From: Deltaproteobacteria bacterium
Lineage (GTDB): Bacteria > Desulfobacterota > Binatia > UTPRO1
Reading direction: 5' to 3'
DNA: 64,000 bases
Assembly (NCBI GenBank): GCA_029262315.1
Contig: JAJCZP010000260.1
Location: forward strand, 1,980 to 65,979
The notes under the pieces were generated by a model. The model searched no databases and was not told where the DNA came from. It saw only the letters and a list, made by a program, of their open reading frames with translations. A program made the translations under genes and the position numbers. Shown in pieces: positions 5,759 to 46,675 of the stretch (its first letter is position 1; every line of letters begins with the position of its first letter).

Positions 5759-5990
5759 GATCCGGGACGGCAAGATCGTCCAGCCGAAGGAGTGGCTCGA
5801 TACCCTGCACGCCAACGAGATCCCGTGCGGCCCCGCGGCAGCCATCGACTTCGCAGAGCGCCGCAAGTAGTCGCGCAGGAACGCAACCGAACCACCCCGA
5901 CCTTGCAGATCCGCATGATTCGTTGCCACGTAGACACCTGATTTCATTGACATTCTAGTGGCATCGTGGTTGCTCCCTTAGGAAACCATC

Positions 5991-6278
5991 ATGCTACCCC
6001 TCCTCGTCATACTGAACGTCCTGATGCAGCTTTTTGATGGGGTAGCGACCTACGTCGGCTGGGAGCAACACGGCGAGCTTAACCCGCTTCTCCGCTTGGG
6101 CTTCGAACACCTGGGTGTCCTGACCACGCTCACCACCGCCAAGCTCACCGCCATCATCCTCGTCCTCTCCCTCGCCAGGCTCCCACGCCCGACGTTGGCC
6201 ATCTACGGCCTGACGCTGACTTTCAGCGTCTACACGGCACTGTCGTTCGTTCCTTGGAGCGTTCGGCTCCTGAACTAG
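5991..6278 (+). CDS. Small membrane protein, DUF5658-like (N-x-x-D-G-x-x-T ... E-x-NP ... KL pattern)
   Basis: LNVLMQLFDGVATYVGWEQHGELNPLL ... LTTAKL. An AT-richer upstream region has a TTGACA box and GGAAACC before the ATG. Confidence 0.5.
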   Translation: MLPLLVILNVLMQLFDGVATYVGWEQHGELNPLLRLGFEHLGVLTTLTTAKLTAIILVLSLARLPRPTLAIYGLTLTFSVYTALSFVPWSVRLLN

Positions 6279-6310
6279 TCTCCCGAGCGGGCTTTCGGTT
6301 GGGGTATTGC

Positions 6311-6401
6311 GCCCGTGGGGCGGAGGCATTGCGTAGCGCCTGCGCCCTGGGCTGAGCGCCCGGTCTGCTCCGGCGCTACGCAACGCCTCCGCCCCACGGG
6401 C
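6311..6401. repeat. 30-bp inverted repeat (1 mismatch) with a 31-nt spacer between convergent genes; a second 7-10-bp hairpin lies at ~6415-6447
   Basis: Arm 1 (6311-6340) is gcccgtggggcggaggcattgcgtagcgcc. Arm 2 (6372-6401) is ggcgctacgcaacgcctccgccccacgggc. Confidence 0.8.
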
Positions 6402-6489
6402 GCGATCGCACGGCGACGCTCGCTCCAGAGGCAAGAGCGTCGCGCCAGGAACGGCGCGCGGTCGGGCGGTGTACTCCGCGTGCGGGGGA

Positions 6490-37705: not shown

Positions 37706-37709
<4 letters not shown>
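36402..37709 (+). CDS. glyQS: Glycine--tRNA ligase (dimeric class II GlyQS)
   Basis: Class II motifs and an anticodon-binding domain. An alternative start lies at 36375. Confidence 0.9.
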
Positions 37710-40741
<3,032 letters not shown>

Positions 40742-42690: not shown

Positions 42691-43221
42691 CTATTCGACG
42701 TCCGCTACGGTGGCGGTCCGCGCCGTAGACGCATCGTCGCGGAAGGACGTGGCCAGGAGACGTACGAAGAGGACCGCCGCCGCGAAGAGCATGGCGAGGG
42801 CGGCGGCGAGATAGAAGCCGAGCCCATGCGGAGCAGCATGGCCGAGCGCCGCGATCGTCAAGAGCACGATCGCGATCAAGTGCGTCGCTGTCACCACAAC
42901 TGCAACGATCTTACTGAACTCGGCCGGAACGCCGCGGCGATTCACCCAGACCTGAACGAGAAAGAAGACCATCGGGGCTGGGAGGAACACCACGCTCGCA
43001 ACACGCCAAGGGTCAGGAACCCCTAGGTGGTGCACCACGTAGGGAACGAAACATCCGAACACGACCGCCAGGCTGATCGTCGCACTCACGATCAGTCGGC
43101 CCTGATCCGCGGCAGTCCAGACACCTCGTGCGCGATAGCCGAGACCGGTCACGAGCCCGCCGAACCCCGCGAGCGCGATCGCGACTTCAGCGATGCTCAG
43201 CAAAACGCCGTCGGATTCCAT
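42691..43221 (-). CDS. Hypothetical integral membrane protein (5 TM)
   Basis: 176-aa ORF with hydrophobic helices. No motifs recognised. Confidence 0.5.
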   Translation of the reverse strand: MESDGVLLSIAEVAIALAGFGGLVTGLGYRARGVWTAADQGRLIVSATISLAVVFGCFVPYVVHHLGVPDPWRVASVVFLPAPMVFFLVQVWVNRRGVPAEFSKIVAVVVTATHLIAIVLLTIAALGHAAPHGLGFYLAAALAMLFAAAVLFVRLLATSFRDDASTARTATVADVE

Positions 43222-43494
43222 GATCCCGCCGCTCTCTCAGAGTTGGTCTGGCGCGAATAGCGTACCGAGCCCTGCATCGTTGGTTCGCATGAGGTGAGGC
43301 GTTCGGTACCACGGGGCGACGGAAGATCGCCAACGCGCGCTCTGTCCAGGAGCAATCGATGCAGTCGCCAATGAAAACCGAGCTGTCCGCGTGGGTCGCA
43401 GGGAGAAATCTCACAGAGGCGCGGACGTCGCTGGCGACATCCTGCAAACCCTGGGCCTGAACTCTTGTAGGTACCGTCCCGGACCGTTCATTCC

Positions 43495-43523
43495 TTGACA
43501 TACCCCCACGCCATAGCTATGGT
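43495..43523 (+). promoter_or_regulatory. Sigma-70-like promoter (TTGACA-17 nt-TATGGT) overlapping a 12-bp perfect palindrome (ccatagctatgg), immediately upstream of the transposase ATG
   Basis: Hexamers and spacing read directly. The ATG lies ~13 nt after the -10, with no SD. Confidence 0.35.
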
Positions 43524-43535
43524 CGCCCTTTCAAG

Positions 43536-44234
43536 ATGAAGAAGCAAAAGCAAGCGACCCTGAATCTGCCAGATCAACCGCGCTGGGGCGGGCGACGTGC
43601 CGGGGCCGGCCGGAAGCCCGGCCCGCACCCCCGCCTCGCGCATCGCAGTCGACCGAAGTTCTCCTCGCTCCCCGCGCACGTCACGTTGAAAGTTCGGCCG
43701 GGGATCCCTTCATTGCGCACGCTTCGGATGGTCCGGGAGGTCGAGCAGTCGTTCGCGCGCGGATGTTCGCGACCAGGCTTTCGGTTGGTGCACTACTCGC
43801 TGCAGAGCAACCACGTACATCTGATCGTCGAGGCGTCGACCCGTGACGCTCTCGGCCGTGGGATGATGGCCATCGCCGGACGTCTGGGGCGCACCGTCAA
43901 TCGAGTGTGCGAGCGATCTGGCAGGGTGTTAGCGGATCGCTACCACCTCCGCGTCCTGAAAACGCCCCGCGAGGTCCATGCGGCGCTGCGCTACGTACTC
44001 CTGAACGCTCGTCGCCATGCGACACGCCTCACCCGTCGCGCCAAGAGCCCACGACTCGATCCGGCCTCATCGGCTCGGTGGTTTGATGGTTGGCGTGCGA
44101 GAACCCGTCGGTGGATGGTGGTGGACGCCCCCGGCGCGGATGAAACTCCACCGATCGCGCGCGCTCGAACATGGCTCCTGAAAACGGGTTGGCGCCGCTA
44201 CGGCCTCTTCGATCCGGCGGACGTGCCGGGCTGA
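43536..44234 (+). mobile_element. REP-associated tyrosine transposase (RAYT) / IS200-like Y1 HUH transposase CDS
   Basis: HUH motif HVHLIV and catalytic-Tyr region RYVLLN. The N-terminal GRKPGPHPRLAHRSRPKF region is typical of RAYTs. Confidence 0.75.
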
Positions 44235-44257
44235 CGCCAACACGAGGAGCTACCCCA

Positions 44258-44720
44258 ACGCGGCGGCGGCGGCGCGGAATGGGACGGCTCGGGCGGGAGC
44301 GCAAGGCCTCCTTCCTCCTTGACCACACGATGCTGAGATCAAGAGCGGGTGGCGAAGGGGCGAGGACGCCACCGGGTAGCACGGCCGACGCGGCGGCGGG
44401 AAACGGGACGGCTCGGGCGGGAGCGCAGGCCTCCTTCCCTCTTAACCACACGCTTCTGAAATCAAGAGCGGGCGGTTGAGGGGAGTGGCAGCCACCGGGT
44501 AGCACGACCGGCGCGGCGGTGGGGGAACGGGACGGCTCGGGTTGCAGCGCGGGCATCCTCCCCTTAACGACACGCTTCTGAGATCAAGAGCGGGTGGCGA
44601 AGGGGCGCGGAAGCCACCGGGTAGCACGGGCAGCGGGTGCGCGGAATGGACAGGCCGGGCGGGAGCGCAGGCCTCCTTCCTCCTTAACCACCAGCTTCTG
44701 AAACCAAGAGCGCGGAGCGG
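44258..44720. repeat. Tandem array of ~3.7 copies of a ~122-bp repeat (REP/BIME-like), immediately downstream of the RAYT gene
   Basis: Units start at ~44258, 44389, 44511 and 44633. They share the cores gggacggctcgggcgggagcgcaggcctccttcctccttaaccac ... cttctgagatcaagagcgggtggcgaagggg ... gccaccgggtagcacg. Confidence 0.8.
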
Positions 44721-44980
44721 ATGCGATCGGGCACTCGGCGAGCTCCGGGGTGCTTCGCCATGGCTTCGCCTCGGGACGAACGCGGGTTCGTACCTGGGCT
44801 CGCCTCATTCATCCAATTCGCCAAGCGTGCCGATATGCTTCCTGGGAGGTTTCTCGGTGTGCGGGCCTGTGAAGTGCGTGGACAGATCGTGTGCGAGATG
44901 CGGTGCTCGTATCCGTTGTGGGACGGGGTGCGTGATCCGTACGATCGTGGCTGGATGGAGCACGCGCGGTAGCGACAACC

Positions 44981-46675
44981 ATGTCTAGACTTGGAGATCT
45001 TCTCGTCCGCCGAGGCGAGATCGAGGAAGCGCAGCTGGAGCGGGCGCTCGGTGAGCAGCGGACCAACGGGGGCGCGCTTGCGAGCCACCTGGTCAAGCTG
45101 GGACTGATCGCGGAGGACGCACTCCTTTCGTACCTGCAGAAGGAGTACCGGCTGCCGGTCGTCGACCCTTCGAGCCTCGAGATCGAGCCCGAGGTATTGG
45201 CGCTCATTCCAACGCAGATGGCGCACAAGCACCACATGATCCCGGTCAATCTGGTGCGCTCGACCTTGACGATGGCGATGGCGGATCCATCGAACCTGAT
45301 CGCGATCAACGAAGTCAAGTTCCTCACGAGCTACGACGTCAAGATCGCCGTCGCGGGCGCGACGGCGGTTCAACGTGCGATCGACCGCTACTACGACGCC
45401 GGCTCGAGCTACGACGACGTCTTGAACGAGATCGACGGCGGCGACGACGTCCAGCTCGTGCAGAGCGAGGAGGAAGTCAACCTCCAGGAGCTCGAACGCG
45501 CCACCGAGGAGGCGCCTGTCGTCCGCCTCGTGAACGCCCTCATGATGGACGCGATCAAGAAACGGGCGAGTGACATCCACGTCGAGCCCTACGAGAAGAT
45601 CCTCCGCATCCGTTTCCGGATCGATGGCGTATTGCACGAAGTGATGCAGCCACCGATCAAGCTGAAGAACGCGATCACCTCGCGTATCAAGGTCATGGCC
45701 CAGCTCGACATTGCCGAGCGTCGGATGCCGCAGGACGGCCGCATAAAACTGAAGATGACGCGCAACCGCGAGATGGACTTCCGCGTCTCGGTCCTTCCCA
45801 CCATATTTGGCGAGAAGGTGGTGCTCCGCCTCCTCGACAAGTCGAATCTTCAGCTCGACATGACGAAGCTCGGTTTCAGCGAACGTGCCCTCGCCGACTT
45901 CAAGGACGCAATCTACAAACCGTTCGGCATGGTGCTGGTCACCGGCCCGACGGGCAGCGGCAAAACGACCTCGCTCTACTCGGCCCTCTCCGAGCTCAAC
46001 AAGGTGACGTCGAACATCTCGACCGCGGAGGATCCTGTCGAGTTCAACCTCATGGGCATCAACCAAGTACAGGTGCACGAGGAGATCGGCTTGTCGTTCG
46101 CGGCGACGCTGCGATCCTTTCTACGGCAGGATCCGGACATCATCATGGTCGGTGAGATCCGCGACTTCGAAACGGCCGAGATCGGCGTCAAGTCCGCCCT
46201 CACGGGGCACCTCGTGCTCTCGACCCTGCACACCAACGACGCCCCCTCCACCATCAACCGACTCCTGAACATGGGCATCGAACCCTTCCTGGTCGCGTCC
46301 TCCATCAATCTCATCATGGCGCAACGCCTCGTGCGCGTGCTCTGCCCAGGATGCCTTGAAGAAACCGAGATCACGCCCGAGGCGTTGGTCGCCATCGGCA
46401 CGCCGCCCGAAATGGCAGAGACCATGCGCTGCTACCAGGGGGCCGGCTGCTCGTCGTGCAGCGGCACAGGCTACAAAGGTCGCATCGCACTCTACGAGGT
46501 CATGCCGATGACCGACGGCCTGCGCGAGGTCATCCTCGCAGGCGGCTCCAACAGCGAGATCAAGCGTGCGGCCATCGACGCCGGCATGGACTCCCTTCGC
46601 CGAAGCGGCATCGACAAGATCGCCGAGGGCGTCACATCAATTGATGAAGTCCTGCGGATCACCATGCCCGACTGA
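44981..46675 (+). CDS. pilB: Type IV pilus assembly ATPase PilB
   Basis: GSPII N-terminal domain. Walker A GPTGSGKTT. Tetracysteine CPGC ... CSSC. Confidence 0.9.
   Translation: MSRLGDLLVRRGEIEEAQLERALGEQRTNGGALASHLVKLGLIAEDALLSYLQKEYRLPVVDPSSLEIEPEVLALIPTQMAHKHHMIPVNLVRSTLTMAMADPSNLIAINEVKFLTSYDVKIAVAGATAVQRAIDRYYDAGSSYDDVLNEIDGGDDVQLVQSEEEVNLQELERATEEAPVVRLVNALMMDAIKKRASDIHVEPYEKILRIRFRIDGVLHEVMQPPIKLKNAITSRIKVMAQLDIAERRMPQDGRIKLKMTRNREMDFRVSVLPTIFGEKVVLRLLDKSNLQLDMTKLGFSERALADFKDAIYKPFGMVLVTGPTGSGKTTSLYSALSELNKVTSNISTAEDPVEFNLMGINQVQVHEEIGLSFAATLRSFLRQDPDIIMVGEIRDFETAEIGVKSALTGHLVLSTLHTNDAPSTINRLLNMGIEPFLVASSINLIMAQRLVRVLCPGCLEETEITPEALVAIGTPPEMAETMRCYQGAGCSSCSGTGYKGRIALYEVMPMTDGLREVILAGGSNSEIKRAAIDAGMDSLRRSGIDKIAEGVTSIDEVLRITMPD

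Follow-up and report, generated by a model that had tools for sequence, protein, structure and literature searches.

REP-associated tyrosine transposases (RAYTs) and REPINs are the main model of transposases that have turned into long-term, vertically inherited residents of bacterial genomes. To our knowledge, nearly all work on RAYTs and REPINs has been carried out in Gammaproteobacteria. The canonical RAYTs, or TnpA(REP), correspond to subclasses 2.2, 2.4, and 2.5 of the TnpAY1 classification of Quentin et al. 2018 (PMC6006769), while the TIRYT/TIRtron systems (Di Nocera et al. 2013, PMC3733652), such as GSU2396 of Geobacter sulfurreducens, largely coincide with subclass 2.1. A mechanism acting on hairpins in single-stranded DNA (ssDNA) is established for IS608 TnpA and E. 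coli TnpA(REP) (PDB 2VJV, 4ER8; PMC6006769). Here, we describe a gene for a HUH/Y1 protein and the tandem repeat array beside it, located in a 64,000-nucleotide stretch of contig JAJCZP010000260.1 (the window, used here for the whole of this stretch). A 20-nt motif (AAGAGCGGGTRGYKAAGGGG), arranged in inverted pairs that form a bulged hairpin, builds arrays that flank at least six paralogues of the gene in a related organism, and we consider it probable that the locus is a chromosomally fixed, vertically inherited REPtron/TIRtron-type unit in which the array is the cognate recognition element of the enzyme.

The system resembles a variant of the RAYT/TIRYT "REPtron" theme, combining the architecture of a REPtron with BIME-2-like clusters and of a TIRtron with the sequence of a divergent TIRYT/subclass 2.1 protein. 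GSU2396 is its best sequence-level relative. In common with the TIRYTs, the family has an NHVH motif, a length of about 230 to 240 residues, an "SS" motif past the tyrosine helix, several diverged copies per genome, inverted repeats at some loci (L004, L006, and L007; related loci are given L numbers), and repeats that sometimes occur as dimers or clusters. However, the TIRYT motif G-x-L-W-[QE]-G-R reads G-x-V-[LF]-A-D-R-Y-H here and Y---NP reads Y---NA, the C-terminal helix-turn-helix (HTH) or DnaA_C-like domain gives way to an unrelated tail, rich in Trp and with DVPG at its end, the arginine-rich motif is N-terminal (GRKP) instead of C-terminal, and long tandem arrays form the flanks in the window's lineage. 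The published terminal inverted repeat consensus of TIRYTs, GGGGWSAS, was tried on the flanks and did not fit.

The E. coli TnpA(REP)/REPtron (PDB 4ER8) provides the top structural match and shares flanking imperfect palindromes with GT[AG]G, alternating orientation, regular BIME-2-like tandem clusters, a hairpin-bulge-hairpin form, and chromosomal, vertical inheritance. It differs in that no sequence similarity is detectable, WQ and NP are missing here, the paralogues are multiple, the repeats are not dispersed at high copy, and the units measure 108 to 132 bp compared with REPs of about 35 to 40 bp with short linkers. With the TnpA proteins of the IS200/IS605 group (IS608, ISDra2, and IS200), the family shares the HUH/Y1 fold and, presumably, chemistry involving an ssDNA hairpin and a tyrosine-linked intermediate; unlike them, it lacks Y---Q, tnpB, near-identical copies, and copies on plasmids or phages, and the gene is syntenic and under purifying selection. 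TnpAY1 class 3, of the Solibacter usitatus type (PMC6006769), is similar in its NHVH motif, several genes per genome, atypical flanking secondary structures, and occurrence in little-studied soil and sediment phyla, but its Y----Q, W[TA], length of about 178 residues, and hairpins at up to about 600 copies per genome have no counterpart here.

A constrained repeat motif accompanies the gene family

The array in the window begins 26 nt past the stop codon of the gene and was delimited by TRF with a period of 123, 3.7 copies, and 79% matches. A search of the 64 kb with an nhmmer profile of the repeat core returned the four array copies only. The hairpins predicted for these units are weak (-6.9 to -9.6 kcal/mol; z of -1 to -2.3), the left arm of every one carries accumulated mismatches, and the last, partial unit does not fold. 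In the window, the gene is intact with all of its invariant residues and the array is degenerating. No upstream repeat is present in the window or at L001, the locus of a syntenic orthologue.

In relatives, the motif follows the consensus AAGAGCGGGT(G/A)G(T/C)(T/G)AAGGGG, and in most arrays a 6-nt loop lies within each inverted pair, the spacing being 21 to 40 nt in L008 and 92 nt in L010. Gene-adjacent arrays (L001, L004, L008, L010, L017, L030, and L031) have units of 108 to 132 bp. The core of the L001 type is CCCCTTAACCACCCGCTCTTCGAATCAAGAGCGGGTAGCGAAGGGG, and L001 and L004 cores fold as ssDNA into a stem-internal loop-stem hairpin of -13.5 to -15.4 kcal/mol, with a z of about -5 and none of 200 shuffles equally stable. 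The core adjoins paralogues in at least five unrelated contexts, including RuvABC/YebC, arginine biosynthesis, and recA/cinA. Among paralogues with saturated synonymous divergence (dS, about 1 to 1.26), the motif is still close to identical, and it shifts stepwise with the identity of the protein to that of the window, from GGGTAGCGAAGGGG at 76 to 90% through GGGTGGTTAAGGGG at 69 to 70% to GGTTGGTAAGGGAAG at 62 to 64%. The main evidence that the repeats may be the recognition element of the enzyme is this combination of constraint on the motif, its co-variation with the protein, and its adjacency to the gene in unrelated contexts.

The arrangement of the motif around the gene varies. Terminal inverted repeats bracket the gene in L004, L006, and L007, and repeats lie on the downstream side only in the window and L001. 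Of four paralogues at 62 to 64% identity that were examined on a 7-Mb contig, two are bracketed by a single inverted AAGAnGGTTGGTAAGGgAAG pair, placed ~160 to 170 nt upstream of the ATG and 30 to 60 nt downstream of the stop codon; of the other two, one has a single degenerate upstream copy and one has none. L040 has no flanking repeats, and in L038, a Binatia member, a GTAG-stem-CTAC hairpin follows the stop codon at a distance of some tens of nucleotides.

Dispersal of the motif was assessed by exact-match scans. A 19-mer scan of JGI metagenomes returned 22 stretches, the convincing ones all from sample Ga0315338, in which the core occurs at five loci: four gene-adjacent arrays and one orphan (L022). 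The orphan array (L022, 575 to 849) consists of 2.4 units of 113 bp and is flanked by a cupin-like open reading frame (ORF) and a gene for a polyprenyl synthetase; no family gene is present in the 3.6-kb locus. The L030 array, which shares a 226-kb contig with the orphan, is 87% identical to it. The orphan is the sole sign of repeats seeded away from the gene. Seventeen loci with a single match (L012 to L016, L018, L020, L021, L023 to L029, L032, and L033) have no family gene and weak profile scores and were treated as chance, their number being about that expected for a collection of this size by a rough estimate. A 20-mer core scan of 185,579 GTDB species genomes gave one match (L005, in Haloferula), without a family gene and most likely due to chance.

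Two versions of one array differ in length. L001 (JGI 3300032138) and L002 (ENA ERZ27248688) are exactly one 123-bp unit apart (L001, 6529 to 6651), with no other difference in the 1.7 kb aligned around the array or in the first 5.6 kb. Considered as a sign of mobility, this difference was downgraded, as both contigs are probably assembled from the same or near-identical DNA. It reflects either true heterogeneity or repeat collapse during assembly, and copy numbers of arrays in short-read assemblies should therefore be regarded as uncertain.

Other readings of the array were set aside. A structured RNA was rejected on negative Rfam results (no match in the whole window at gathering thresholds or in 43200 to 45000 at E of ≤1). 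A coding function was rejected since, although 123 is divisible by 3, related arrays have periods of 112, 113, 118, 119, and 130. A CRISPR array was rejected because the entire 123-bp unit repeats at 79 to 92% identity, with no cas genes in the neighborhood and no PADLOC match for the protein. Each window unit also has a second CGGGT(A/G)GC box within GCCACCGGGTAGCACG (44346 to 44625), ~27 nt past the core box, and GCCACCGGGTAGCACG is exactly conserved in three window units. CGGGTRGC has 16 matches in the window (7 ± 2.5 expected), 5 of them in the array and all 5 on the plus strand.

Placement of the protein in the HUH/Y1 superfamily

The ORF, the NHVH and RYVLLN motifs, the promoter, the palindrome, and the array were all found where an earlier note on this DNA had placed them. 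That note had called the gene a RAYT and named a Pfam Y1_Tnp (PF01797) search as a check. A match exists but is marginal, at 23.1 bits against a cutoff of 23, and just 12 of 30 family members reach this model at E of ≤1e-3. The NCBIfam RAYT model REP_Tyr_transpos (NF047646) aligns with residues 49 to 162 at 32.8 bits (cutoff, 80), and the NCBIfam IS200 model scores 17.7 bits. All 30 homologues match REP_Tyr_transpos weakly (best E, 5e-10), compared with 2 of 30 for the IS200 model. No second domain beside Y1_Tnp was found with Pfam, and thus no C-terminal HTH-like (DnaA_C/HTH_23/HTH_28) domain, and the window protein has no match in PADLOC or PHROGs.

In an alignment of the 30 homologues, N92, H93, and H95 of the HuH motif are invariant, as are Y153, V154, L155, L156, N157, R159, and H161 of the tyrosine motif. 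Tyr153 is the putative single catalytic tyrosine, on a C-terminal helix predicted for residues 144 to 168. Further invariant features of the family are LDPASSxxWFxGW and the C terminus TWLLxxGWRxxGxxxPxxVPG. The W of the RAYT "WQ" motif is missing, (L/F)ADRYH standing in its place (compare PMC6006769 Table 1 and PMC3733652 Additional file 5), and the tyrosine motif is Y---NA (Y-V-L-L-N-A) in contrast to the Y---NP of canonical RAYTs. Invariant residues are also found in the N-terminal WGGRRxGAGRKP (W17, G18, G19, R21, A24, G25, R26, and K27). The GRKPGPHPR N-terminal region had been described as typical of RAYTs; however, this basic motif falls outside the stretch aligned to the RAYT model and GSU2396, whose matches begin after it, and it is instead a signature of the subfamily. 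It may bind DNA.

The AlphaFold model has a confident β-α-β-β-α-β-α core over residues 45 to 168 (block-mean predicted local distance difference test [pLDDT], about 74 to 90), while the C-terminal 60 residues have a pLDDT of <50 and give no fold inference. With this model, the top Foldseek match was 4er8_A, the E. coli RAYT with a REP hairpin (E, 4.5e-5), followed by 2f4f, 2xm3, 2vih, and others (IS200, ISDra2, and IS608 TnpA), all with a probability of 1.00. Sequence searches of the PDB with the single protein or the family profile gave no match. In profile-profile comparisons with hhalign, GSU2396 was matched with 95.3% probability (E, 2.1e-8; 135 columns), from residue 41 and the first conserved strand to the "SS" tail motif, and the Acidobacterial TIRYT aca645 with an E of 7e-4; E. 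coli RAYT b228 gave no match.

Judged by sequence and modeled structure, the protein is an enzyme of the HUH/Y1 superfamily that falls on its RAYT side, with TIRYT/subclass 2.1 as the nearest group; its signatures are altered, its tail differs, and it has a basic N-terminal extension. This placement follows from the weak RAYT-model matches, the fold match, and the GSU2396 profile match, and the proposed closeness to RAYTs rather than to IS200 was borne out. The RAYT label holds in this broader sense but not in the canonical one: because the NCBIfam score is below the cutoff, the WQ and NP residues are absent, several paralogues occur per genome, and dispersed high-copy repeats are lacking, the protein appears better described as a TIRYT/subclass-2.1-like offshoot.

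Promoter, palindrome, and pre-ATG segment

The promoter TTGACA-N17-TATGGT is the sole sigma-70-like site in 43150 to 45050, matching at 10 of 12 positions with 0.2 such sites expected by chance. Upstream regions of 12 family loci (protein identity, 62 to 90%) were aligned, and TTGAC and the A-AGGT of the -10 element were invariant or nearly so. The earlier proposal that the gene has its own promoter is therefore well supported by conservation at all 12 loci. Only 12 nt separate the -10 element from the ATG, and given this short stretch, the transcript is probably leaderless or near leaderless. The distant members L035 and L038 have about 18 to 20 nt here, with a purine-rich sequence resembling a Shine-Dalgarno site.

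The palindrome CCATAGCTATGG, which overlaps the -10 element, had been put forward as an autoregulatory or recognition site. It occurs once in the window with two mismatches allowed, is absent from all 11 orthologous or paralogous promoters (L001 has TCATACATAAGG at this position), and belongs to a class of perfect 12-bp palindromes present at chance frequency, with 33 in the window and 36 ± 5.5 in first-order Markov simulations. As it is unique, absent from relatives, and no more than expected by chance, a functional role was rejected, and the palindrome is, from these comparisons, a lineage-specific accident. By the refuting condition that the earlier note itself gave, a palindrome both unique and unrelated to the repeats, this part of its reading fails. 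The arrays found beside paralogues support a functional link of the gene with the adjacent array; here the array was the signal and the palindrome noise.

In the window, L001, L004, L006 to L008, L010, L017, L030, L034, L035, and L038, the stretch from the -10 element to the ATG shows more conservation than a promoter would require. At the 12 aligned loci, the GC of (A/C)GCC is invariant and TTCAAG is strongly conserved, despite the saturated dS of the paralogues, and in distant members the segment extends to GATTCAAGAG. The pre-ATG box (GGTAGCC..TTCAAGAG) has GGTAGC and (A)TCAAGAG in common with the repeat core GATCAAGAGCGGGTAGCGAAGG of relatives. The segment could be an operator; its likeness to the repeat core may be a coincidence.

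Size, inheritance, and selection of the family

In a word-indexed search, 6,314 homologues reached an E of ≤1e-3. When 1.84 billion representatives were searched exhaustively with a profile, there were 8,314 clusters at E of ≤1e-3, 4,579 at E of ≤1e-10, and 1,669 at E of ≤1e-30 (clusters at 50% identity), mostly matched over their full length. This very large branch is named by neither Pfam nor NCBIfam and is found in uncultured Binatia and "Deltaproteobacteria"-type genomes. One family member (P0095) is annotated from a Binatia metagenome-assembled genome (MAG), and the nearest named relatives of the PilT encoded in the window are from "Deltaproteobacteria bacterium" MAGs (86%) and Candidatus Binatia (81%). 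At least six paralogues, mutually 70 to 79% identical, lie on one contig of 6,995,498 bp, and at least seven occur in a related metagenome sample. No family copy was found by tblastn in 72,556 plasmid and 50,697 phage records, and no tnpB gene was found in any locus examined.

The 90%-identical orthologue L001 lies in an identical gene context on a 129-kb metagenomic contig. The shared order is shikimate dehydrogenase, a SnoaL-like protein, a 176-residue membrane protein, the gene, the array, and pilB-pilT-pilC, with PilT 99% identical between the two. The gene had been placed in a decayed islet next to a repeat array, but no sign of such an islet was seen; the neighboring genes are syntenic in this relative, and decay is confined to the array itself. 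Between the window gene and L001, dS is 0.43 and dN/dS is 0.12, and comparisons among paralogues gave a dN/dS of 0.09 to 0.12, with dS saturated. Because of the purifying dN/dS, the synteny, the diverged paralogues, and the lack of plasmid and phage copies, the gene is, by these sequence criteria, a vertically inherited and selected host gene and not an active insertion sequence.

The two syntenic loci differ at the array. In L001, a 144-residue membrane-protein gene (5859 to 6293, minus strand) separates the main array from a solo repeat core just past the stop codon. This gene is missing from the window, where the array directly follows the stop codon (44235 to 44712, compared with 5772 to 6906 in L001). 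The difference suggests that sequence was inserted or deleted inside a repeat unit or between units.

Interpretation of the locus and alternatives

Taken as a REPtron/TIRtron-type unit with the array as its cognate element, the locus has direct support in its fold, catalytic motifs, purifying selection, synteny, and promoter conservation and in the gene-repeat association with its motif conservation. We infer ssDNA binding, cleavage, the mode of array growth, and any host benefit by analogy with TnpA(REP) and IS608 TnpA. Transcription of the gene would be driven by a conserved promoter of its own and would probably yield an mRNA that is leaderless or nearly so, and the gene product would be a HUH/Y1 ssDNA nuclease-ligase of a large, unclassified RAYT/TIRYT-like subfamily. 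In ssDNA, the inverted motif pairs would fold into a stem-internal loop-stem hairpin, which the protein would bind at the replication fork, cleaving and rejoining the strand beside it. Repeated local excision and reinsertion, or recombination between units, could then create, expand, and homogenize arrays at the flanks of the gene and occasionally seed an array elsewhere.

Several points weigh against this account. What is known of the activity of the subfamily comes from sequence and models. In E. coli, GTAG recognition has been linked to the W of the RAYT "WQ" motif (PMC6006769), which this subfamily lacks, and without it the mode of recognition may differ; in addition, GT[AG]G lies inside the 3' arm of the hairpin, in contrast to the 5' foot of canonical REPs. 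At L034, L035, L039, and L040, gene and promoter are intact, with the flanking motif reduced to a single degenerate copy or missing, and the protein is therefore kept for something other than, or beyond, adjacent repeats, which suggests a host function beyond acting on its own flanks. The hairpins of the window itself are weak, the sole apparent copy-number polymorphism (L001/L002) is possibly an assembly artifact, and the polarity of arrays is uneven, the two-sided arrays of L008 being direct and not inverted. Slippage can also expand tandem arrays without a dedicated enzyme.

Of the rival explanations, a canonical single-copy RAYT mobilizing a genome-wide REP/REPIN population is quite unlikely. 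It would fit the weak REP_Tyr_transpos matches of all 30 members, the E. coli RAYT as best fold match, the flanking palindromic repeats with GT[AG]G, and the orphan array as a case of dispersal, but not the bit score far below the model cutoff, the lack of a sequence-level match to b228 or any PDB chain, the Y---NA and missing WQ motifs, or the six or more paralogues on one contig. Nor does it fit the distribution of the core, which is confined to the array in the 64 kb, to five loci in a well-assembled related metagenome, and to one chance-like match among the species genomes. The Y1_Tnp fold, the several copies per genome, and the inverted flanking motifs in L004, L006, and L007 could point to an autonomous, currently mobile IS200/IS605-type insertion sequence with the repeats as its ends. 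However, the copies are 70 to 79% identical, compared with about 99% for IS200-type elements (PMC6006769 Table 1), the gene holds an orthologous position at the dS and dN/dS given above, tnpB and plasmid or phage copies were not found, and the IS200 model touches 2 of 30 members, making current mobility most improbable.

The array might also be unrelated to the gene, as a regulatory or structural repeat upstream of pilB or a slippage minisatellite, with the adjacency coincidental. Its position upstream of pilB in both the window and L001, the weak window hairpins, and the sufficiency of slippage for tandem growth speak for this. We nevertheless hold it very unlikely, as paralogues in five or more unrelated gene neighborhoods have the core beside them and neither an Rfam family match nor terminator-like sites were found. 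Somewhat more weight attaches to a fully domesticated host factor, for example an enzyme processing ssDNA or replication forks or a regulator, with the motifs as relics and the arrays as by-products without current interaction. The strong conservation of gene and promoter where motifs are lost (L034, L035, L039, and L040), the many diverged paralogues per genome, the purifying selection, and an array that decays beside an intact gene are all in line with it. It remains unlikely in our judgment, because the near invariance of the motif across paralogues with saturated dS and its co-variation with protein distance argue that protein and motif still interact, in the lineage of the window at least. 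Doubtful, though of interest, is a distinct and widespread Y1 HUH branch (the 1,669 clusters) in which at least six specialized paralogues are retained by the host, hairpins are amplified only locally, and the pre-ATG box is a self-sensing operator; if true, this would be a mode of HUH-repeat association outside the RAYT/REPIN and IS200 paradigms.

The enzyme of this branch has lost the WQ and NP signatures, has kept its catalytic residues, and exists as many diverged paralogues per genome; in the window's lineage, a strongly conserved 20-nt motif forms separate flanking arrays at each paralogue. Such natural enzyme-substrate pairs offer a testbed for HUH/Y1 DNA recognition without the GTAG/W94 mechanism and allow testing of whether the enzyme itself makes tandem repeat clusters of the BIME type.

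Features of the locus and other observations

The coordinates of the features in the window and the arrays of related loci are collected in Table 1.

Table 1. Features of the window and repeat arrays at related loci
Feature or locus	Position in window	Strand	Evidence or description
Sigma-70-type promoter: TTGACA (43495-43500), 17-nt spacer, TATGGT (43518-43523)	43495-43523	+	Sequence and conservation
12-bp perfect palindrome CCATAGCTATGG, chance feature outside the system	43511-43522	.	Unique, unconserved
Conserved segment from -10 to ATG (CGCCCTTTCAAG)	43524-43535	+	12-locus alignment
Coding sequence, 232-residue HUH/Y1 (RAYT/TIRYT-like) protein	43536-44234	+	Pfam, NCBIfam, Foldseek, hhalign, dN/dS
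N-terminal basic motif W17-P28 (WGGRRAGAGRKP), subfamily specific	43584-43619	+	Invariant residues, n = 30 homologues
HuH motif N92-H93-V94-H95 (codons 92-95)	43809-43820	+	N92, H93, H95 invariant; aligned with NHVH of GSU2396
Putative catalytic Tyr153 in RYVLLNARRH	43992-43994	+	Invariant; aligned with RYVEMNP tyrosine motif of GSU2396
Tandem array, about 3.7 units of 123 bp	44260-44712	+	TRF, nhmmer core profile
Decayed bulged-palindrome cores, one per unit	44313-44364, 44436-44487, 44558-44609, partial 44678-44712	+	nhmmer
L001 (90% identity to window protein)			4.1 units of 123 bp and solo core directly past stop codon
L004 (81% identity)			9.5 units of 119 bp downstream; 3.8 units of 118 bp upstream, inverted
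L008 (69% identity)			130- and 132-bp arrays, both sides
L010 (70% identity)			108-bp array downstream
L030 (79% paralogue)			Downstream array
L017 (80% paralogue)			Inverted upstream array
L031 (76% paralogue)			Downstream array
L019 (same as L001 locus)			Found in 19-mer scan

Two further repeats were observed in the window. An intergenic long inverted repeat at 6306 to 6406 has 40-nt arms, 90% complementary, around a 21-nt spacer; it contains GCGTAGCGCC, is single copy in the window, and is unrelated to the 20-nt motif. At 37877 to 38038, about three copies of an in-frame 48-nt repeat, encoding a segment rich in Lys, Arg, and Thr, lie inside the long ORF at 37706 to 40741.

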